A stretch of DNA of 50,013 bases from Fervidicoccaceae archaeon (GCA_038734945.1 JAVYOA010000002.1:372001-422013), one strand, 5' to 3'; counted from the stretch's first letter, positions 6,075 to 35,887 are shown. Translations and numbers: made by a program. The notes: generated by a model not told the origin, from the sequence alone.

Positions 6075-6194
6075 GAACAGCAGCTACATTGTTCAAAGTC
6101 GAGAAATATCTATTTAAACCCTCTTGAGCAACAGAAGAGAGAGATTAACTGCCAACAAACTGGATATCAATAGCTAGTTGTGAGGGAAAGGAAG

Positions 6195-6479
6195 TTGAAG
6201 GTTCCAAAGCAAATAAGAACGTACTGTCCAAGGTGCAGGAAGCACACAGTGCACTCTGTAATGCTCTACAAAGGAGGGAAGAGAAGGAAGCTTGCAATTG
6301 GAGAGAGAAGGTATAGAAGGAAGCAGGAGGGCTATGGCTCAAAGAGAAGGCCAGAGCAAAAGAGATTTGCTAAAACAACGAAAAAGCAAGTTCTTAAGCT
6401 CAAGTGCTCTGAGTGTGGATATATAACACACAGAAGGGGAATCAGGCTAAAGAAGCTCGAAATAACGGAGGTGGCCTGA
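6195..6479 (+). CDS. rpl44e: 50S ribosomal protein L44e
   Basis: KVPKQIRTYCPRC..LKCSECG; TTG start at 6195. Confidence 0.96.
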   Translation: MKVPKQIRTYCPRCRKHTVHSVMLYKGGKRRKLAIGERRYRRKQEGYGSKRRPEQKRFAKTTKKQVLKLKCSECGYITHRRGIRLKKLEITEVA

Positions 6480-6680
6480 ATGCCGAAGAAGAACAAAATA
6501 CCTATACCGGAGCCTAGGACTAAATTCATATTGATAAGATGTCCGAGCTGCGGGAATGAGCAGGTTGTCTTCTCCCATGCCACGTTCCCTGTTAGGTGCC
6601 TCATTTGTGGAAGCCAGCTTGTCAGGCCTACAGGAGGAAGGGCCATGCTCCAGGCCCAGTTCATAAAAATTGTAGGTTAG
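6480..6680 (+). CDS. rps27e: 30S ribosomal protein S27e
   Basis: RCPSCGNEQVVFSHA..CLICG..PTGG. Confidence 0.96.
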   Translation: MPKKNKIPIPEPRTKFILIRCPSCGNEQVVFSHATFPVRCLICGSQLVRPTGGRAMLQAQFIKIVG

Positions 6681-6723
6681 GAGGATTATTTTTCAAATAT
6701 ATTATGCAGGAGGATGATGGAGA

Positions 6724-7518
6724 ACGGTAAGGTCTAGGAAAGATTTTCCAGAAGCAAATGAGCTGGTGGTGGCAACAGTCAAGGAAATTTTCGATTATGG
6801 AGCCTATGTTGAGCTCGATGAATATAAGAACATGAGGGCCTACCTGCCTTGGAGCGAGGTTGCTTCGAAGTGGGTGAAAGATGTTAAGGATGTTATTAGG
6901 CCAGGTGAGAAGATAGTCGCCAAGGTAATACGGGTCAACAGACAGAAGGGGCAGGTCGATGTCAGTTTAAAGAGAGTTTACGATACCGAGAAGAAGAAGA
7001 AAATGCAGTGGTACAAGAGAAATCAAAGAGCGGAGAAGGTCCTTCAGCTAGCAGCACAGAGAATTGGAAAGAGTCTAGATGATGCGTACAAGGAAGCTGG
7101 ATGGCCACTTGAGGATTACTATGGAGAGATTTATTCTGGTTTGGAAGCTGCTGTCATGAGCGGGCCTGAGGCATTGAGGATCCCTGGAGTAAAGGAGGAG
7201 TGGATCATCCCACTTCATGAGGAAGCAGTAAAGCACATACAAATAAAGCAAGTAAAGCTAGTTGGAACAGTTACCCTGAGATCGCTTGAGCCAGATGGCA
7301 TTGAGAGGATAAAAGATGTTCTAATGAAGCTGAAGAGCTCGGTGGGAGATGATGTGAAGATAAATGTCTACACTGTAGGTGCTCCTAGGTACAGAGTTGA
7401 GCTGATCACGACTGATTATAAGGTTGGCGAGAGGGCCCTGGAAAAGTCAGTTCATGAAGCAGAGAAAGAAGCTCAGAGGAAAAGGGTTGAGATGATCTTC
7501 ACAAGGGAAAAAGCATGA
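6724..7518 (+). CDS. eif2a: Translation initiation factor aIF2 alpha (start apparently ACG at 6724)
   Basis: S1 domain FDYGAYVELDEY, DVSLKRV and GAPRYRV; conserved N-terminus RSRKDFPEANELVV lies upstream of the ORF-track GTG. Confidence 0.93.
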   Translation, partial: TVRSRKDFPEANELVVATVKEIFDYGAYVELDEYKNMRAYLPWSEVASKWVKDVKDVIRPGEKIVAKVIRVNRQKGQVDVSLKRVYDTEKKKKMQWYKRNQRAEKVLQLAAQRIGKSLDDAYKEAGWPLEDYYGEIYSGLEAAVMSGPEALRIPGVKEEWIIPLHEEAVKHIQIKQVKLVGTVTLRSLEPDGIERIKDVLMKLKSSVGDDVKINVYTVGAPRYRVELITTDYKVGERALEKSVHEAEKEAQRKRVEMIFTREKA

Positions 7519-7697
7519 GGTGGCTGTTGAGAAAGTGCAGGAGCTGCGGAAGGTACACCCTTGAGCAGAGCAAATGCCCATATTGCGGAGGGGAGCTCCT
7601 AGTTCCTCATCCTCCCAGATTTTCTCCTGAGGATAAATATGTTAAGTATAGAGTCCTGGCGAAATCTACCACGGAACGCTCTTCAGCTTCAGCTTGA
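7515..7697 (+). CDS. nop10: H/ACA RNP protein Nop10
   Basis: RKCRSCGRYTL..CPYCGG..PHPPRFSPEDKY. Confidence 0.95.
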   Translation: MRWLLRKCRSCGRYTLEQSKCPYCGGELLVPHPPRFSPEDKYVKYRVLAKSTTERSSASA

Positions 7698-15902: not shown

Positions 15903-16970
15903 TCAAATAATGATGAGTCCTTCTCTTTTGGCCAAGCTTAGTACTTCCTCTATTTCATCCTTTCGGACCCTTCTATTGAGATCTTTCCACCTGCTTTCCT
16001 CTAGCAATACTCTATAGGTTGGATAGTACTGATCCATTATGTTTATAACAAGCCAATCCTTTGGCATGTTCTCAGATAACCACTTCACTATGGGCTTGCT
16101 GCAGCATTCCACATGTCCAGGAAGAACTAGATGCCTCAAAATTATGCTTCCCTCCCAGCGAACGCTAATCAGGTTCCTGGTAACCACTTCCCTGTATCTC
16201 GGGGCTGCTGATAGCACAGAAGCGTGGGAAGGTTCCCAGTACTTGAAGTCCGGAAGCCACAGATCGATTACATCGAGAAGCAGCCTCGTTAGCTTCTCGC
16301 TCATGTAGAAATTGCTATTCCATATCTGCGGAACGTCCTCATTGAAGTACTTGAAGCTCTCCACAATTACATGGGCATGAGGTGTTGGTTCTCCCCCAAC
16401 ATGATTAATGTTTATGGCTCCCATTCTCACAAGCTTACTCTGTATTAGAGCAAGGTCTCTGGCATCCACATAGGCCCCCCTTAGAGGAATCTGCTGGGAT
16501 ATCTCGAAATTCTGGCAATAAACGCATCTGAAGTTGCAACCAGTATAGAATATTGTCCCGCTTGGAATCAGAGGATGCTCCTCTCCATAGTGAGGAAAAT
16601 ATGTTGAAACCTGACCTCTGTAGTCTACCCTGCAGTACTTTCCCTTTGCAAGCATTCTATTTGTTCCGCACTTTCTCTCGCATAGTTCACAGCTAAGAAT
16701 CATTCTATTGAGTATTTCCGTCTTTAGATCTATATAGGAAACAGGTGCTTGAGGAAGAGCTTTTTCGTTGTATTTTACGATTTCATTGAGCCGTTTTCTG
16801 AATTCGAACTCCATTTCCCTGTGCAGTGACCAAAGCTCATCATCAGTGAGCATGTTGAGCTCTGCATCGACTGGGATGCTCTTAGCTATTTTATATCTAG
16901 GGGGGTACCTTCCCCTGAGCACTCCAAAGTACCAGCTGAGAGCTGTTTCCAGTTTACTCTCAGCACTCAT
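15903..16970 (-). CDS. Radical SAM protein, PflX family
   Basis: CELCERKC, HYGEE, CNFRCVYCQN, GGEP and LPDFKY motifs. Confidence 0.88.
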   Translation of the reverse strand: MSAESKLETALSWYFGVLRGRYPPRYKIAKSIPVDAELNMLTDDELWSLHREMEFEFRKRLNEIVKYNEKALPQAPVSYIDLKTEILNRMILSCELCERKCGTNRMLAKGKYCRVDYRGQVSTYFPHYGEEHPLIPSGTIFYTGCNFRCVYCQNFEISQQIPLRGAYVDARDLALIQSKLVRMGAININHVGGEPTPHAHVIVESFKYFNEDVPQIWNSNFYMSEKLTRLLLDVIDLWLPDFKYWEPSHASVLSAAPRYREVVTRNLISVRWEGSIILRHLVLPGHVECCSKPIVKWLSENMPKDWLVINIMDQYYPTYRVLLEESRWKDLNRRVRKDEIEEVLSLAKREGLIII

Positions 16971-18202
16971 TGTGGCTCAGCTGTTTTAAGCTCAGAACAA
17001 TACTTCTTTTTATATGATTCGTTTAGCTTCCAGGTCAACCATCTATCCTTGCATACGTCATTGAGTACAGAGAGAATGAAATCACTCAGCATTTCATCCT
17101 CGCTCTTCTCTGACCAATTGTAGAATATCCTTCTTGTAGTTCCCTGCACTACATATTCAAAGAATGGGCTGAGCCTCTTTCTCCTAGCTGGGAAGTACAC
17201 ATATATTGGTTTTCCCAGCCTGGCAGCCTCCATTACTTCGTAGAATACACCATAGGATGCATTTTCCGAATAGTGATACACAATTATTGCATTGGCATTT
17301 CTAACGAGCGATATGTCCCTTTCCACAACTTGTGACCTTATGAGGTCAATGGATTCCTGAAGCTCATCGAGCTTAAGCTTTATGCCATTTATTTCCACTG
17401 CACTCTCATTTCCGCTAAATGCTGTTTCATATTCTGTGATGAGATCCCAATCCTTTATGGTGAGGGGATTTAGAACTATGAAATACTTGGAGATAGCAGA
17501 TATGAATTTCGAGATTTCCTGCTCAACCTTCTCCAGTGGAATTCCAGTTATTGGGAAGCTCAGATATATCTTTGGTTTCTCCCGCACAATCAGATCTAGG
17601 AAGGTTGAAACTGGATGATTCACGCTGAATACGAGCCAATCTATTTTTTTACCATCGCGCCTGCTCTGTATTTCTCTTATGTAGTCCAGAACCAAGTTGA
17701 TGCTCTCCTTTCTCCAGGTAGCCAAAATGCTCAGCCTGGGCTCAATTCTTCCTCTCCAAGCTTGATCAGATAATAGCCTCTTCTTTACATTTAATAGGTC
17801 ATCAACTAATATGTAGATCTCTTCAGGATTTATTCTCTCTATATGTTTGATGCTGAGCCCTCTTATAATTCCCTCGGGGTGTGTGTGGCTGGGAGCTATT
17901 CTAAATATTGCAGGAGAGCTAATTACGCTGATAACATTTCTCTTAGATGATGCTTCTCTCCTGTTGATCCTCGCTATTATCTCCTCTATGGCTTCATCCC
18001 TAATTGTATTGAGCTGCTCTGGAGAAAGGTCCAGGACGTTTTCCCTCGTTATGTTTAGAGAGTACCTCTCTCCAACGAGTTTCATGTAGTCGAAAACCCT
18101 GTATATGTCAATGGATGCATCGATATTGCTTTTTGAAGCTAGATCAACTAGTTCATCTAGAAACTCGTCCCTTCTGTTCAGAGGAGGGCTTGTAACAAGA
18201 AT
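16967..18202 (-). CDS. NMP-kinase-like + nucleoside 2-deoxyribosyltransferase-like fusion (start uncertain)
   Basis: C-terminal YLSFPIT..RDISLV..SYGVFYE..GKPIY; frame open 39+ codons upstream of ATG 18085. Confidence 0.65.
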   Translation of the reverse strand: MLVTSPPLNRRDEFLDELVDLASKSNIDASIDIYRVFDYMKLVGERYSLNITRENVLDLSPEQLNTIRDEAIEEIIARINRREASSKRNVISVISSPAIFRIAPSHTHPEGIIRGLSIKHIERINPEEIYILVDDLLNVKKRLLSDQAWRGRIEPRLSILATWRKESINLVLDYIREIQSRRDGKKIDWLVFSVNHPVSTFLDLIVREKPKIYLSFPITGIPLEKVEQEISKFISAISKYFIVLNPLTIKDWDLITEYETAFSGNESAVEINGIKLKLDELQESIDLIRSQVVERDISLVRNANAIIVYHYSENASYGVFYEVMEAARLGKPIYVYFPARRKRLSPFFEYVVQGTTRRIFYNWSEKSEDEMLSDFILSVLNDVCKDRWLTWKLNESYKKKYCSELKTAEPQ

Positions 18203-18269
18203 TCTCCTATGCCCTCCCCTATCTTGGGAGTAAGTGGGTGAGAGGTTGGAAGAAAAAAGCTGCGTTGAG

Positions 18270-19280
18270 TCACTTAAAACCAGGTTTCCTCACCCTCACC
18301 ACATCTTTGTTCACGAGATCAGGTGGTACTCTGCCATTGAGGAATTCTATTAAGTTCATTGCTACTTTTTCTGCCATTGCATTTCTAGCTTCATGCGTCG
18401 CGCTTCCTATATGAGGGGCAAGCACAACATTTTTCAGCCCTGTGAGCTCATGTGATGCTGGAAGAGGTTCTTCCTCAAAGACATCGAGAGCAGCGCCAGC
18501 TATCCATCCTTCTTTGAGTGCCTTCACAAGGGCCCTAGTGTCAACTATGGCGCCTCTTGCAGCATTGATCAGATATGCTGTTGGCTTCATGAGCCTCAAT
18601 CTCTGCTCGTTTATTAGATGCCTTGTTTGCTCATTCAGATTTGCGTGAATTGTAACTACATCGCTGATTGACAGCAAATCGTCGAGCTCTGCATATTTCG
18701 CATTGAGGGCTTTCTCCTCCTCAGGAGATAGCCTAAATTGATCGTAGTAAACAATATTCATTCCAAATCCTATTGCCCTCCTGGCGACCTCTCTTCCTAT
18801 CCTTCCCATTCCTATTATGCCAAGAGTCTTTCCCTTCAGCTCCATGCCAAGAAGCATAAGAGGGTGCCAACCAGTTCTCGATCTTTCCCAGTCTCCATTT
18901 CTAACGAATGCATCGGCTTCCACTATTCTTCTGGTTATTGCAAGCAGCAGAGCCATAGTGAGATCGGCTGTTGCATCTGTTAGGACGCCAGGGGTGTTGG
19001 TAATGTATATGCCCTTCTCTGTAGCGTATTTTATATCTATGTTATCAAAACCAACTGCATATTGTGAAATTATTCTTAGATTCCTCGCTTTATCTATGAG
19101 CTCCTTATCTATTCTGTCTGTGAGTAGTGTGACTAGGGCATCAACTTCAGATGCCTTTTCCAATAGGATCTCTCTAGGGGGAGCCCAGTACTCCTTCCAA
19201 ACCTCAATTTCAAATTTATCCCTCAGCTTTTCAATCCCCACAGCTGGAATTTCCCTTGTTATAAAAAGTTTTGGTTTCAT
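18270..19280 (-). CDS. gyaR: Glyoxylate reductase
   Basis: [27 protein letters not shown] and PHIGSAT motifs. Confidence 0.9.
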
Positions 19281-34340: not shown

Positions 34341-34498
34341 GGCAAGATCCCGATCAATGTTCTATCTCAAAGCTATTTTATATTTTGATATTCGAAAGTG
34401 TGGGAATTGAGAACATTTATCATGCATTTACCGCTATGACTCCGTCTCCTATCTTAAAATGCATTTGCTAACAAAAAGATCTTTTGAGGATGATTCGC

Positions 34499-34843
34499 TT
34501 GAGTGAGGATGGATTGCTCGATAATCAAATCGGACAGAGAAGCGATGTTGTAGAAAAGTTCAGAGTTATGTTATCCAAGGAAGCAGAGGAGGCAAGAATA
34601 GATGCTATATCAACTGCCAAGCTAGCCATTTCGATTTATAAAAATGGGGAGAGAGAGCTGGCCCTCCTGGTCATCAGGGAGAGCATGAGAATAGCGAAAG
34701 GCTATGTGGAGCTAACTGAGAAAATAGGTGAGAACCAGGATAAATCCTACGACCTTCTGCTCGGTCTAGAAACGATTGAAGAGCTAATGAGGAGCGGAGA
34801 GAAGGTTGAGTATTTGAGGGGGATCTTGGAGGAGATAGCCTAG
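34499..34843 (+). CDS. Hypothetical helical protein
   Basis: ORF with SD-like GAGGATGA before TTG 34499. Confidence 0.6.
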   Translation: MSEDGLLDNQIGQRSDVVEKFRVMLSKEAEEARIDAISTAKLAISIYKNGERELALLVIRESMRIAKGYVELTEKIGENQDKSYDLLLGLETIEELMRSGEKVEYLRGILEEIA

Positions 34844-35813: not shown

Positions 35814-35887
35814 GGCCGCCGCCGGGGTTTGAACCCGGGACCTCCGGATCCACAGTCCGGCGCTCTTCCAGCTGAGCTACGGCGGCC
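35814..35887 (-). tRNA. tRNA-His (GUG), intronless, genome-encoded G-1, CCA not fully encoded
   Basis: Cloverleaf: acceptor GCCGCCG/CGGCGGC, anticodon loop CTGTGGA, T-loop TTCAAAC, discriminator C. Confidence 0.97.

Follow-up and report, generated by a model that had tools for sequence, protein, structure and literature searches.

The aIF2-alpha locus

The window analysed is a stretch of 50,013 nucleotides (nt) from a Fervidicoccaceae archaeon (positions 372001-422013 of contig C2 in G000, a genome of 1.34 Mb). It carries, on the + strand, the genes for L44e, S27e, aIF2-alpha and Nop10 in that order, a cluster conserved in archaea. The subject of this report is the start of the aIF2-alpha gene, where an ACG at 6724-6726 is probably the genuine initiation codon in this genus. 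The aIF2-alpha frame and the genes around it are as follows, with positions counted from the first letter of the window.

6715..6717, + strand: in-frame TGA, the stop that shuts the aIF2-alpha frame, three codons 5' of the ACG; also present in lineage C (see below)
6724..6726, + strand: ACG, the proposed aIF2-alpha initiation codon, on comparative evidence and Shine-Dalgarno (SD) spacing
6724..7518, + strand: aIF2-alpha coding sequence, 264 codons and the stop TGA 7516-7518; single-copy, with Pfam and PDB matches
6766..6771, + strand: GTG GTG, the first canonical in-frame starts; the public protein call P0002 begins at 6769
6180..6479, + strand: rpl44e-like open reading frame (ORF), first gene of the cluster, from the ORF list; named from its translation
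6480..6680, + strand: rps27e-like ORF, named from its translation, which shows zinc-ribbon CxxC motifs
7515..7697, + strand: nop10-like ORF whose ATG overlaps the aIF2-alpha stop (ATGA 7515-7518)

After the TGA at 6715-6717 the frame reads TGG AGA ACG GTA AGG TCT AGG AAA GAT TTT CCA, ie WRTVRSRKDFPEANELVVATVK. There is no in-frame ATG, GTG or TTG between the preceding in-frame stop, TAG 6673-6675, and this TGA, and none from there to GTG 6766, so that the first canonical in-frame start in this genome lies 14 codons 3' of the ACG. The stop of rps27e (TAG 6678-6680) is 43 nt 5' of the ACG. An earlier, sequence-only reading of this DNA had described the frame as shut by TGA 6715-6717, with GTG 6766 as its first canonical start and 264 codons from the ACG to the stop (6724-7518); all of these coordinates were confirmed. 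The G000 genome has one copy of the gene. Its product carries the precomputed Pfam domains PF07541 and PF00575 (the latter an S1 domain) and matches chain B of PDB entry 2AHO, the aIF2-alpha of S. solfataricus, with an E value of 1.2e-67 over query residues 5-258. Given the ATGA overlap, translation of nop10 is likely to be coupled to that of the ACG-started aIF2-alpha gene.

Conservation of the ACG codon

Each of the 41 related genomes searched gave one aIF2-alpha match; 30 loci were examined, and 11 matches without a locus were left out. The collection used holds 8 Fervidicoccaceae genomes, and the genus is represented by three genomes at the species level, G000 (lineage A, the organism of the window), G001 (lineage B) and G002 (lineage C). 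The codon corresponding to ACG 6724 was located by ungapped extrapolation from the tblastn match.

All three genus genomes read ACG GTA AG at the start position. At the loci of other genera an ATG, TTG or GTG was always found within one codon of that position (27 of 27), and at 21 of them it lies exactly on it (12 ATG, 5 TTG and 4 GTG), the other six being one codon off. F. fontis, for example, has TTG GTT AGA at the aligned site. Met1 of 2AHO chain B also aligns with the ACG (query residue 5 corresponds to chain residue 3), in agreement with the earlier description of a typical archaeal aIF2-alpha N-terminus. The trait is thus restricted to 3 of the 30 loci, all in one genus. A metagenome scan for further ACG lineages returned two contigs only (L033 and L034), both of them lineage-B variants carrying ACG. 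Two further species and two metagenome contigs repeat the whole arrangement: ACG GTA AG, upstream of it an in-frame stop or sequence that is unrelated, and an SD motif at 9-10 nt. This makes the pattern more than chance.

Lineage C, like lineage A, has an in-frame TGA three codons 5' of the ACG, and has no canonical start within 15 codons 3' of it. Within the open stretch that these two lineages share, ACG is the only codon in common. Comparison of the upstream regions thus showed that the members of the genus carry ACG and not a shared in-frame ATG.

The three lineages differ sharply in how they can be compared on the two sides of the ACG. Upstream, they are unalignable except for the TG.T of the SD motif; downstream, they align codon by codon. 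In the 13 codons 3' of the ACG, the numbers of sites variable among the three lineages at codon positions 1, 2 and 3 are 1, 0 and 10, and coding constraint begins right after the ACG. Over the whole gene the corresponding differences are about 40, 20 and 145, a distribution indicating that the gene is under purifying selection. Between lineages, 64-69% of the four-fold degenerate sites are different, which is near saturation, so the ACG has come through very deep divergence without the loss of any of its three bases. Where lineage A has GTG GTG (6766-6771), lineage B reads GTA GTA and lineage C reads GTA GTC, ie the downstream start is not conserved. Taken with the canonical starts aligned on the same position in other genera and the SD spacing described below, these results strongly support the use of ACG as the aIF2-alpha start, as the sequence-only reading had proposed.

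Shine-Dalgarno spacing

The 16S rRNA gene on the same contig has the 3' end ...GGATCACCTCCT, from which an SD consensus of AGGAGGTGATCC follows. The spacing used in this genome was determined by a genome-wide screen for SD 5-mers with an ORF of 150 codons or more after them; the screen also required an in-frame stop no more than 6 codons upstream and no other canonical start near. Canonical starts show a sharp peak at 9 nt after the last G (G6) of AGGAGG, with 74 of 189 at that distance and 112 of 189 at 8-10 nt. The elements with possible roles upstream of the ACG are given below.

6708..6718, + strand: SD motif AGGAGG(A)TGAT, which can pair with the 3' end of the 16S rRNA
6679..6686, + strand: AGGAGGAT, first copy, overlapping the rps27e stop and 19 nt 5' of ATG 6704
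6690..6703, + strand: AT-rich, TATA-like stretch TTTTCAAATATATT, a possible internal archaeal promoter

The ACG lies 10 nt from AGGAGG 6708-6713 (counted from G6713), or 9 nt if TGAT 6715-6718 does the pairing. It is found 9 nt after AGGTG and GTGAT in lineages B and C, so that an SD motif precedes the ACG by 9-10 nt in all three lineages, and the genome optimum is 9 nt. The SD-like string GGAGGATGA noted earlier at 6709-6717 does end 6 nt before the ACG. By these measures the ACG is the only one of the candidate starts that is served by an SD. AGGAGGAT is present twice (6679-6686 and 6708-6715), the copies being 29 nt apart with the TATA-like stretch between them, and the first copy is too distant to serve ATG 6704 at the spacing of this genome. 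AT-rich stretches comparable to 6690-6703 are also present in lineages B and C.

RNA folding of 6670-6770 was no better than that of shuffled sequences (z = 0.02, with 88 of 200 shuffles equal or better), and a structural RNA switch in the leader was dropped from consideration on that result. The only Rfam match in the window is a tRNA at 35814-35886.

Public gene calls and the lineage tree

Protein calls extend the comparison to further lineages.

P0002, lineage A: called from GTG 6769; shortened
P0005 and P0131, lineage C: called from VKEIF; shortened
P0007, lineage E (86% to C): called from MASKWV, 220 amino acids; fits no canonical start upstream; protein only
P0003, lineage B: called from the ATG at -27; extended
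P0004 cluster of 4 members, lineage D (87% to C): MVRARKEFPE; starts canonically on the codon aligned with the ACG
P0132, a lineage C variant: MHTVRARK; an in-frame ATG lies 6 nt 5' of the ACG position

The public calls examined in the ACG lineages are all shortened or wrongly extended (P0002, P0003, P0005, P0131 and probably P0007). In a maximum-likelihood tree, lineages E, C and (A, B) group together and D is their sister (support 80/88, a polytomy being possible). The distribution is accounted for by one change to ACG following the divergence from D.

P0132 comes from one contig of 2148 nt and is otherwise identical to the lineage C protein. The difference in its spacer reflects an assembly error in that contig or a genuine polymorphism.

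Near-cognate starts in other genes

The screen described above was also used to look for non-canonical codons at the position set by the SD. CTG is enriched at 9 nt, with 5 matches versus 16 for 51 other codons combined. Four of the seven CTG candidates were compared across species.

G000:C9:263562: LeuRS-like gene; CTG in all three genus genomes, with F. fontis having TTG
G000:C9:471396: pyruvate-kinase-like gene; CTG in 3 of 3 genus genomes, with an identical SD
G000:C9:194842: CoxS-like gene; CTG in its own genome, ATG in the other two genus genomes
16967..18283 of the window, - strand: ORF with CTG 18283-18281; CTG at 9 nt in both of the two genus genomes that hold the ORF

The last of these, an ORF of 438 codons, is without a canonical start near its 5' end and has a GGTGA-type SD 9 nt before the CTG. 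It overlaps the end of an upstream dehydrogenase-like gene, and its homologue in G002 also has CTG at 9 nt. The remaining candidates were CTG at C1:136390, C1:164000 and C9(-):429990, ATT at C9:517144 and ATA at C9(-):272996, and there was an ATC as well.

The aIF1 gene starts with ATG, and the aIF2-beta and aIF2-gamma genes are also canonical. The occurrence of CTG starts in unrelated genes, coupled with these canonical starts in the genes for the other factors, argues for a general tolerance rather than a factor-specific circuit, and tolerance of near-cognate starts looks, from the genes compared, like a lineage-wide trait. General reassignment of ACG was considered and rejected, as ACG is not enriched and a normal, intron-bearing tRNA-Thr(CGT) is present at C9:229732-229843. 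Several tRNAs of G000, including this one, carry introns.

ACG as a putative initiation codon

What is observed at this locus is the position of the start, its conservation in the genus, the SD geometry and the absence of an alternative start shared by the lineages. From these, we consider that a conserved ACG initiation codon is the best reading and a probable one. The 30S subunit would pair the 3' end of its 16S rRNA (...GGAUCACCUCCU) with the SD motif at 6708-6718 on the L44e-S27e-aIF2alpha-Nop10 transcript, and this pairing would place the codon 9-10 nt downstream, the ACG, in the P site. The initiator Met-tRNA would read ACG through a central C-A mismatch to give the 264-residue protein, presumably with Met as its first residue. 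Weak initiation at the ACG may keep aIF2-alpha, and nop10 through the ATGA overlap, well below the upstream ribosomal-protein cistrons, and selection may maintain the weak start as a fixed expression setting. The ACG start would then belong to a lineage-wide tolerance of near-cognate codons, as suggested by the CTG starts that are also conserved in the genus.

Several points weigh against this reading. NCBI translation table 11 does not, to our knowledge, list ACG as a start codon. The evidence for the start comes from comparing sequences, and any function of the weak start is hypothetical. Over the whole genome the position set by the SD shows no excess of ACG, the aIF2-alpha gene being its only match at 9-10 nt in the screen. 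An ATG is present 5-7 nt 5' of the ACG in every lineage, and in lineage B a further ATG, which is in frame and is used by gene callers (P0003), stands 27 nt 5' of the ACG without an SD. P0132 implies a spacer between SD and ACG that is one base shorter than in L003. Neither the 33 tRNAs called by aragorn in G000 nor its 41 Rfam tRNA matches include an initiator tRNA of the A1:U72 type, and regular-expression searches did not identify one; an anticodon-stem motif was likewise absent from five family genomes, one of them a single contig, and is not diagnostic here. Finally, the aIF1 of S. solfataricus is reported to discriminate against non-canonical starts such as AUU (PMC6237735, PMC4705826).

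A 2020 review lists AUG, GUG and UUG as the archaeal start codons (PMC7531240). A study of Haloferax reports that near-cognate codons made up about 30% of its putative alternative initiation sites, and these sites were put aside (PMC7261190). Our literature search found no description of ACG starts in archaea in the portions of the papers that were available, and the supplements of PMC7261190 may list ACG sites. If the present reading is correct, ACG is a natural archaeal start codon that lies outside the ATG, GTG and TTG set and outside the rules of gene finders.

A close parallel is near-cognate initiation in eukaryotes, where ACG and CUG are read by Met-tRNAi delivered by eIF2, as for VP2 of adeno-associated virus and C' of Sendai virus, and where the homologous eIF1, eIF1A and eIF2 select the start codon. 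The likeness lies in the homologous factors (aIF1, aIF1A and aIF2), in the codons themselves (ACG and CTG) and in a weak start on an ordinary cellular protein. In contrast to the eukaryotic cases, the archaeal codon would be set by its distance from an SD, fixed at 9-10 nt, and not by scanning and Kozak context, and the ACG would be the sole start of an essential gene rather than the start of an alternative isoform. The genus may therefore offer a natural system in which an SD-positioned initiation complex of the eukaryotic type accepts mismatched codons.

Alternative explanations

The sequence-only reading had gone further than the start codon itself, proposing that the ACG and two overlapping upstream ORFs (uORFs) form a start-fidelity circuit. 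Both uORFs exist as it described them.

6704..6730, + strand: uORF encoding MQEDDGER and a stop, out of frame; not conserved in lineage C; no SD at functional spacing
6714..6737, + strand: uORF encoding MMENGKV and a stop, out of frame; its ATGs 6714 and 6717 lie inside or beside the SD, at spacings of 0 and 3

More generally, an ACG start, with or without uORFs, could make aIF2-alpha synthesis sense the stringency of start selection or the supply of aIF2 or ternary complex, in a loop like those of infC or eIF1. aIF2-alpha is a subunit of the factor that delivers the initiator tRNA, and a weak start on such a factor is an obvious place to seek dosage control or feedback in archaeal translation. 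The retention of ACG through near-saturating divergence suggests selection for a weak start, and in eukaryotes eIF1 is known to control its own synthesis through an AUG in poor context (PMC6237735). We nevertheless regard autoregulation as doubtful. The upstream ATGs are at -20, -10 and -7 relative to the ACG in lineage A, at -5 in lineage B and at -7 in lineage C, and the uORFs opened by the last two have 3 and 11 codons respectively. Measured from the SD, upstream ATGs come at 0 or 3 nt in lineage A, at 4 nt in lineage B and at 2 nt in lineage C, all a long way from the 9-nt optimum. The uORFs of the three lineages thus agree neither in position and distance nor in frame and length, no SD precedes any of them by 8-10 nt, and a role for them in such a circuit is not supported. 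The uORF at 6704-6730 is probably incidental, and that at 6714-6737 is probably not used.

The distribution of the ACG tells against a feedback loop as well, since it occurs in one genus only and the other 27 loci and sister lineage D are canonical. The factor known to enforce start fidelity is aIF1, and its gene has an ATG start here; the beta and gamma genes are canonical as well. CTG starts in the LeuRS-like, pyruvate-kinase-like and other genes show that near-cognate starts in this genus are not specific to initiation factors. In addition, a low level of the alpha subunit would be expected to give less ternary complex and thus less initiation at ACG, which is positive and not negative feedback. 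If a feedback loop did exist, it could tie to the unusual tolerance of ACG and CTG in this genus.

The AUU start of bacterial infC, the gene for IF3, is widespread. It is like the ACG in being a conserved non-canonical start on an initiation-factor gene, and unlike it in that the ACG is confined to one genus (3 of 30 loci). It also differs in that IF3 itself discriminates against its AUU start and so closes the loop, whereas the known archaeal discriminator is aIF1 and not aIF2-alpha (PMC6237735, PMC4705826); in the literature available to us no role in start-codon discrimination was found for the alpha subunit of archaeal aIF2. The poor-context AUG of eIF1 and the uORF of eIF5 share with the present leader a suboptimal start on an initiation-factor mRNA together with upstream ATGs, but here those ATGs are unconserved in frame and length and are without functional SD spacing, and there is no scanning in archaea (PMC6237735).

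A second possibility is that the ACG is no start at all, each lineage beginning elsewhere: at GTG 6766 or 6769 in lineage A, at the ATG at -27 in lineage B and at a downstream GTG in lineage C, with the segment that holds the ACG untranslated or the ACG an ordinary Thr codon. This is how the public gene calls have it (P0002, P0003, P0005 and P0131), and a leaderless transcript from an internal promoter is possible given the AT-rich, TATA-like stretches. However, the codon-position pattern in the 13 codons from the ACG to GTG 6766 is that of coding sequence, and those codons match the N-terminus of every relative. The GTG codons are unconserved and the lineage B ATG has no SD, while the SD at 9-10 nt from the ACG is kept in all three lineages. 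Separate starts are accordingly improbable.

Initiation at an upstream out-of-frame ATG (6717 in this genome), followed by a programmed frameshift into the aIF2-alpha frame, is very improbable. Lineages A and C do share an ATG at -7 and the string xAC-G-GTA, at which a +1 shift would give M-E-N-V-R or M-P-Y-V-R. Lineage B would require a -1 shift from its ATG at -5 where A and C require +1, so there is no shared direction, and no slippery site, rare codon or stop is present at the would-be site of shifting. The distance of the upstream ATGs from the SD optimum, given above, also argues against their use, and lineage D starts at the ACG position itself.

We give equally little credence to C-to-U editing of the ACG to AUG in the mRNA. 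Plant organelles edit ACG to AUG start codons, and the two cases are alike in having a genomic ACG exactly where relatives have ATG; editing would explain why the ACG is conserved precisely at the Met position. We know of no mRNA C-to-U editing in archaea, and nothing in the data calls for it. Unlike in the organelles, no editing machinery is known here, and the CTG starts of the same genus argue for tolerance in decoding: C-to-U editing would not repair CTG to ATG, giving TTG instead, although TTG is canonical here.

An error of assembly or sequencing (the 1-nt insertion that the sequence-only reading gave as its alternative) or a decaying gene can be dismissed almost outright: one lineage C contig (P0132) does differ by one base in the spacer, but Logan contigs from three studies (X1, depth 7.6; X2, depth 106; X8, depth 8.1, 303 nt covering 6689-6991) are identical to the window across 6704-6770 with no other letters and no indels, three species whose spacers are unrelated share this arrangement, and the gene is single-copy and under purifying selection by its codon-position differences. 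Over 6714-6730 in particular, the contigs give ACG at 6724 with no base missing. X1 and X2 are possible source samples, and X5 has no contig over 6666-6823.

A comparison site in the window

The spacing at aIF2-alpha had been likened to that of a second site in the window, where GAGGATGA at 34486-34493 precedes TTG 34499. This site exists, with a gap of 5 nt versus 6 nt at aIF2-alpha. Within 34486-34501 the same bulged SD variant, GAGGATGAT, stands 4 nt ahead of TTG 34499. A further in-frame TTG is present at 34484, and was chosen by the ORF lister over TTG 34499.

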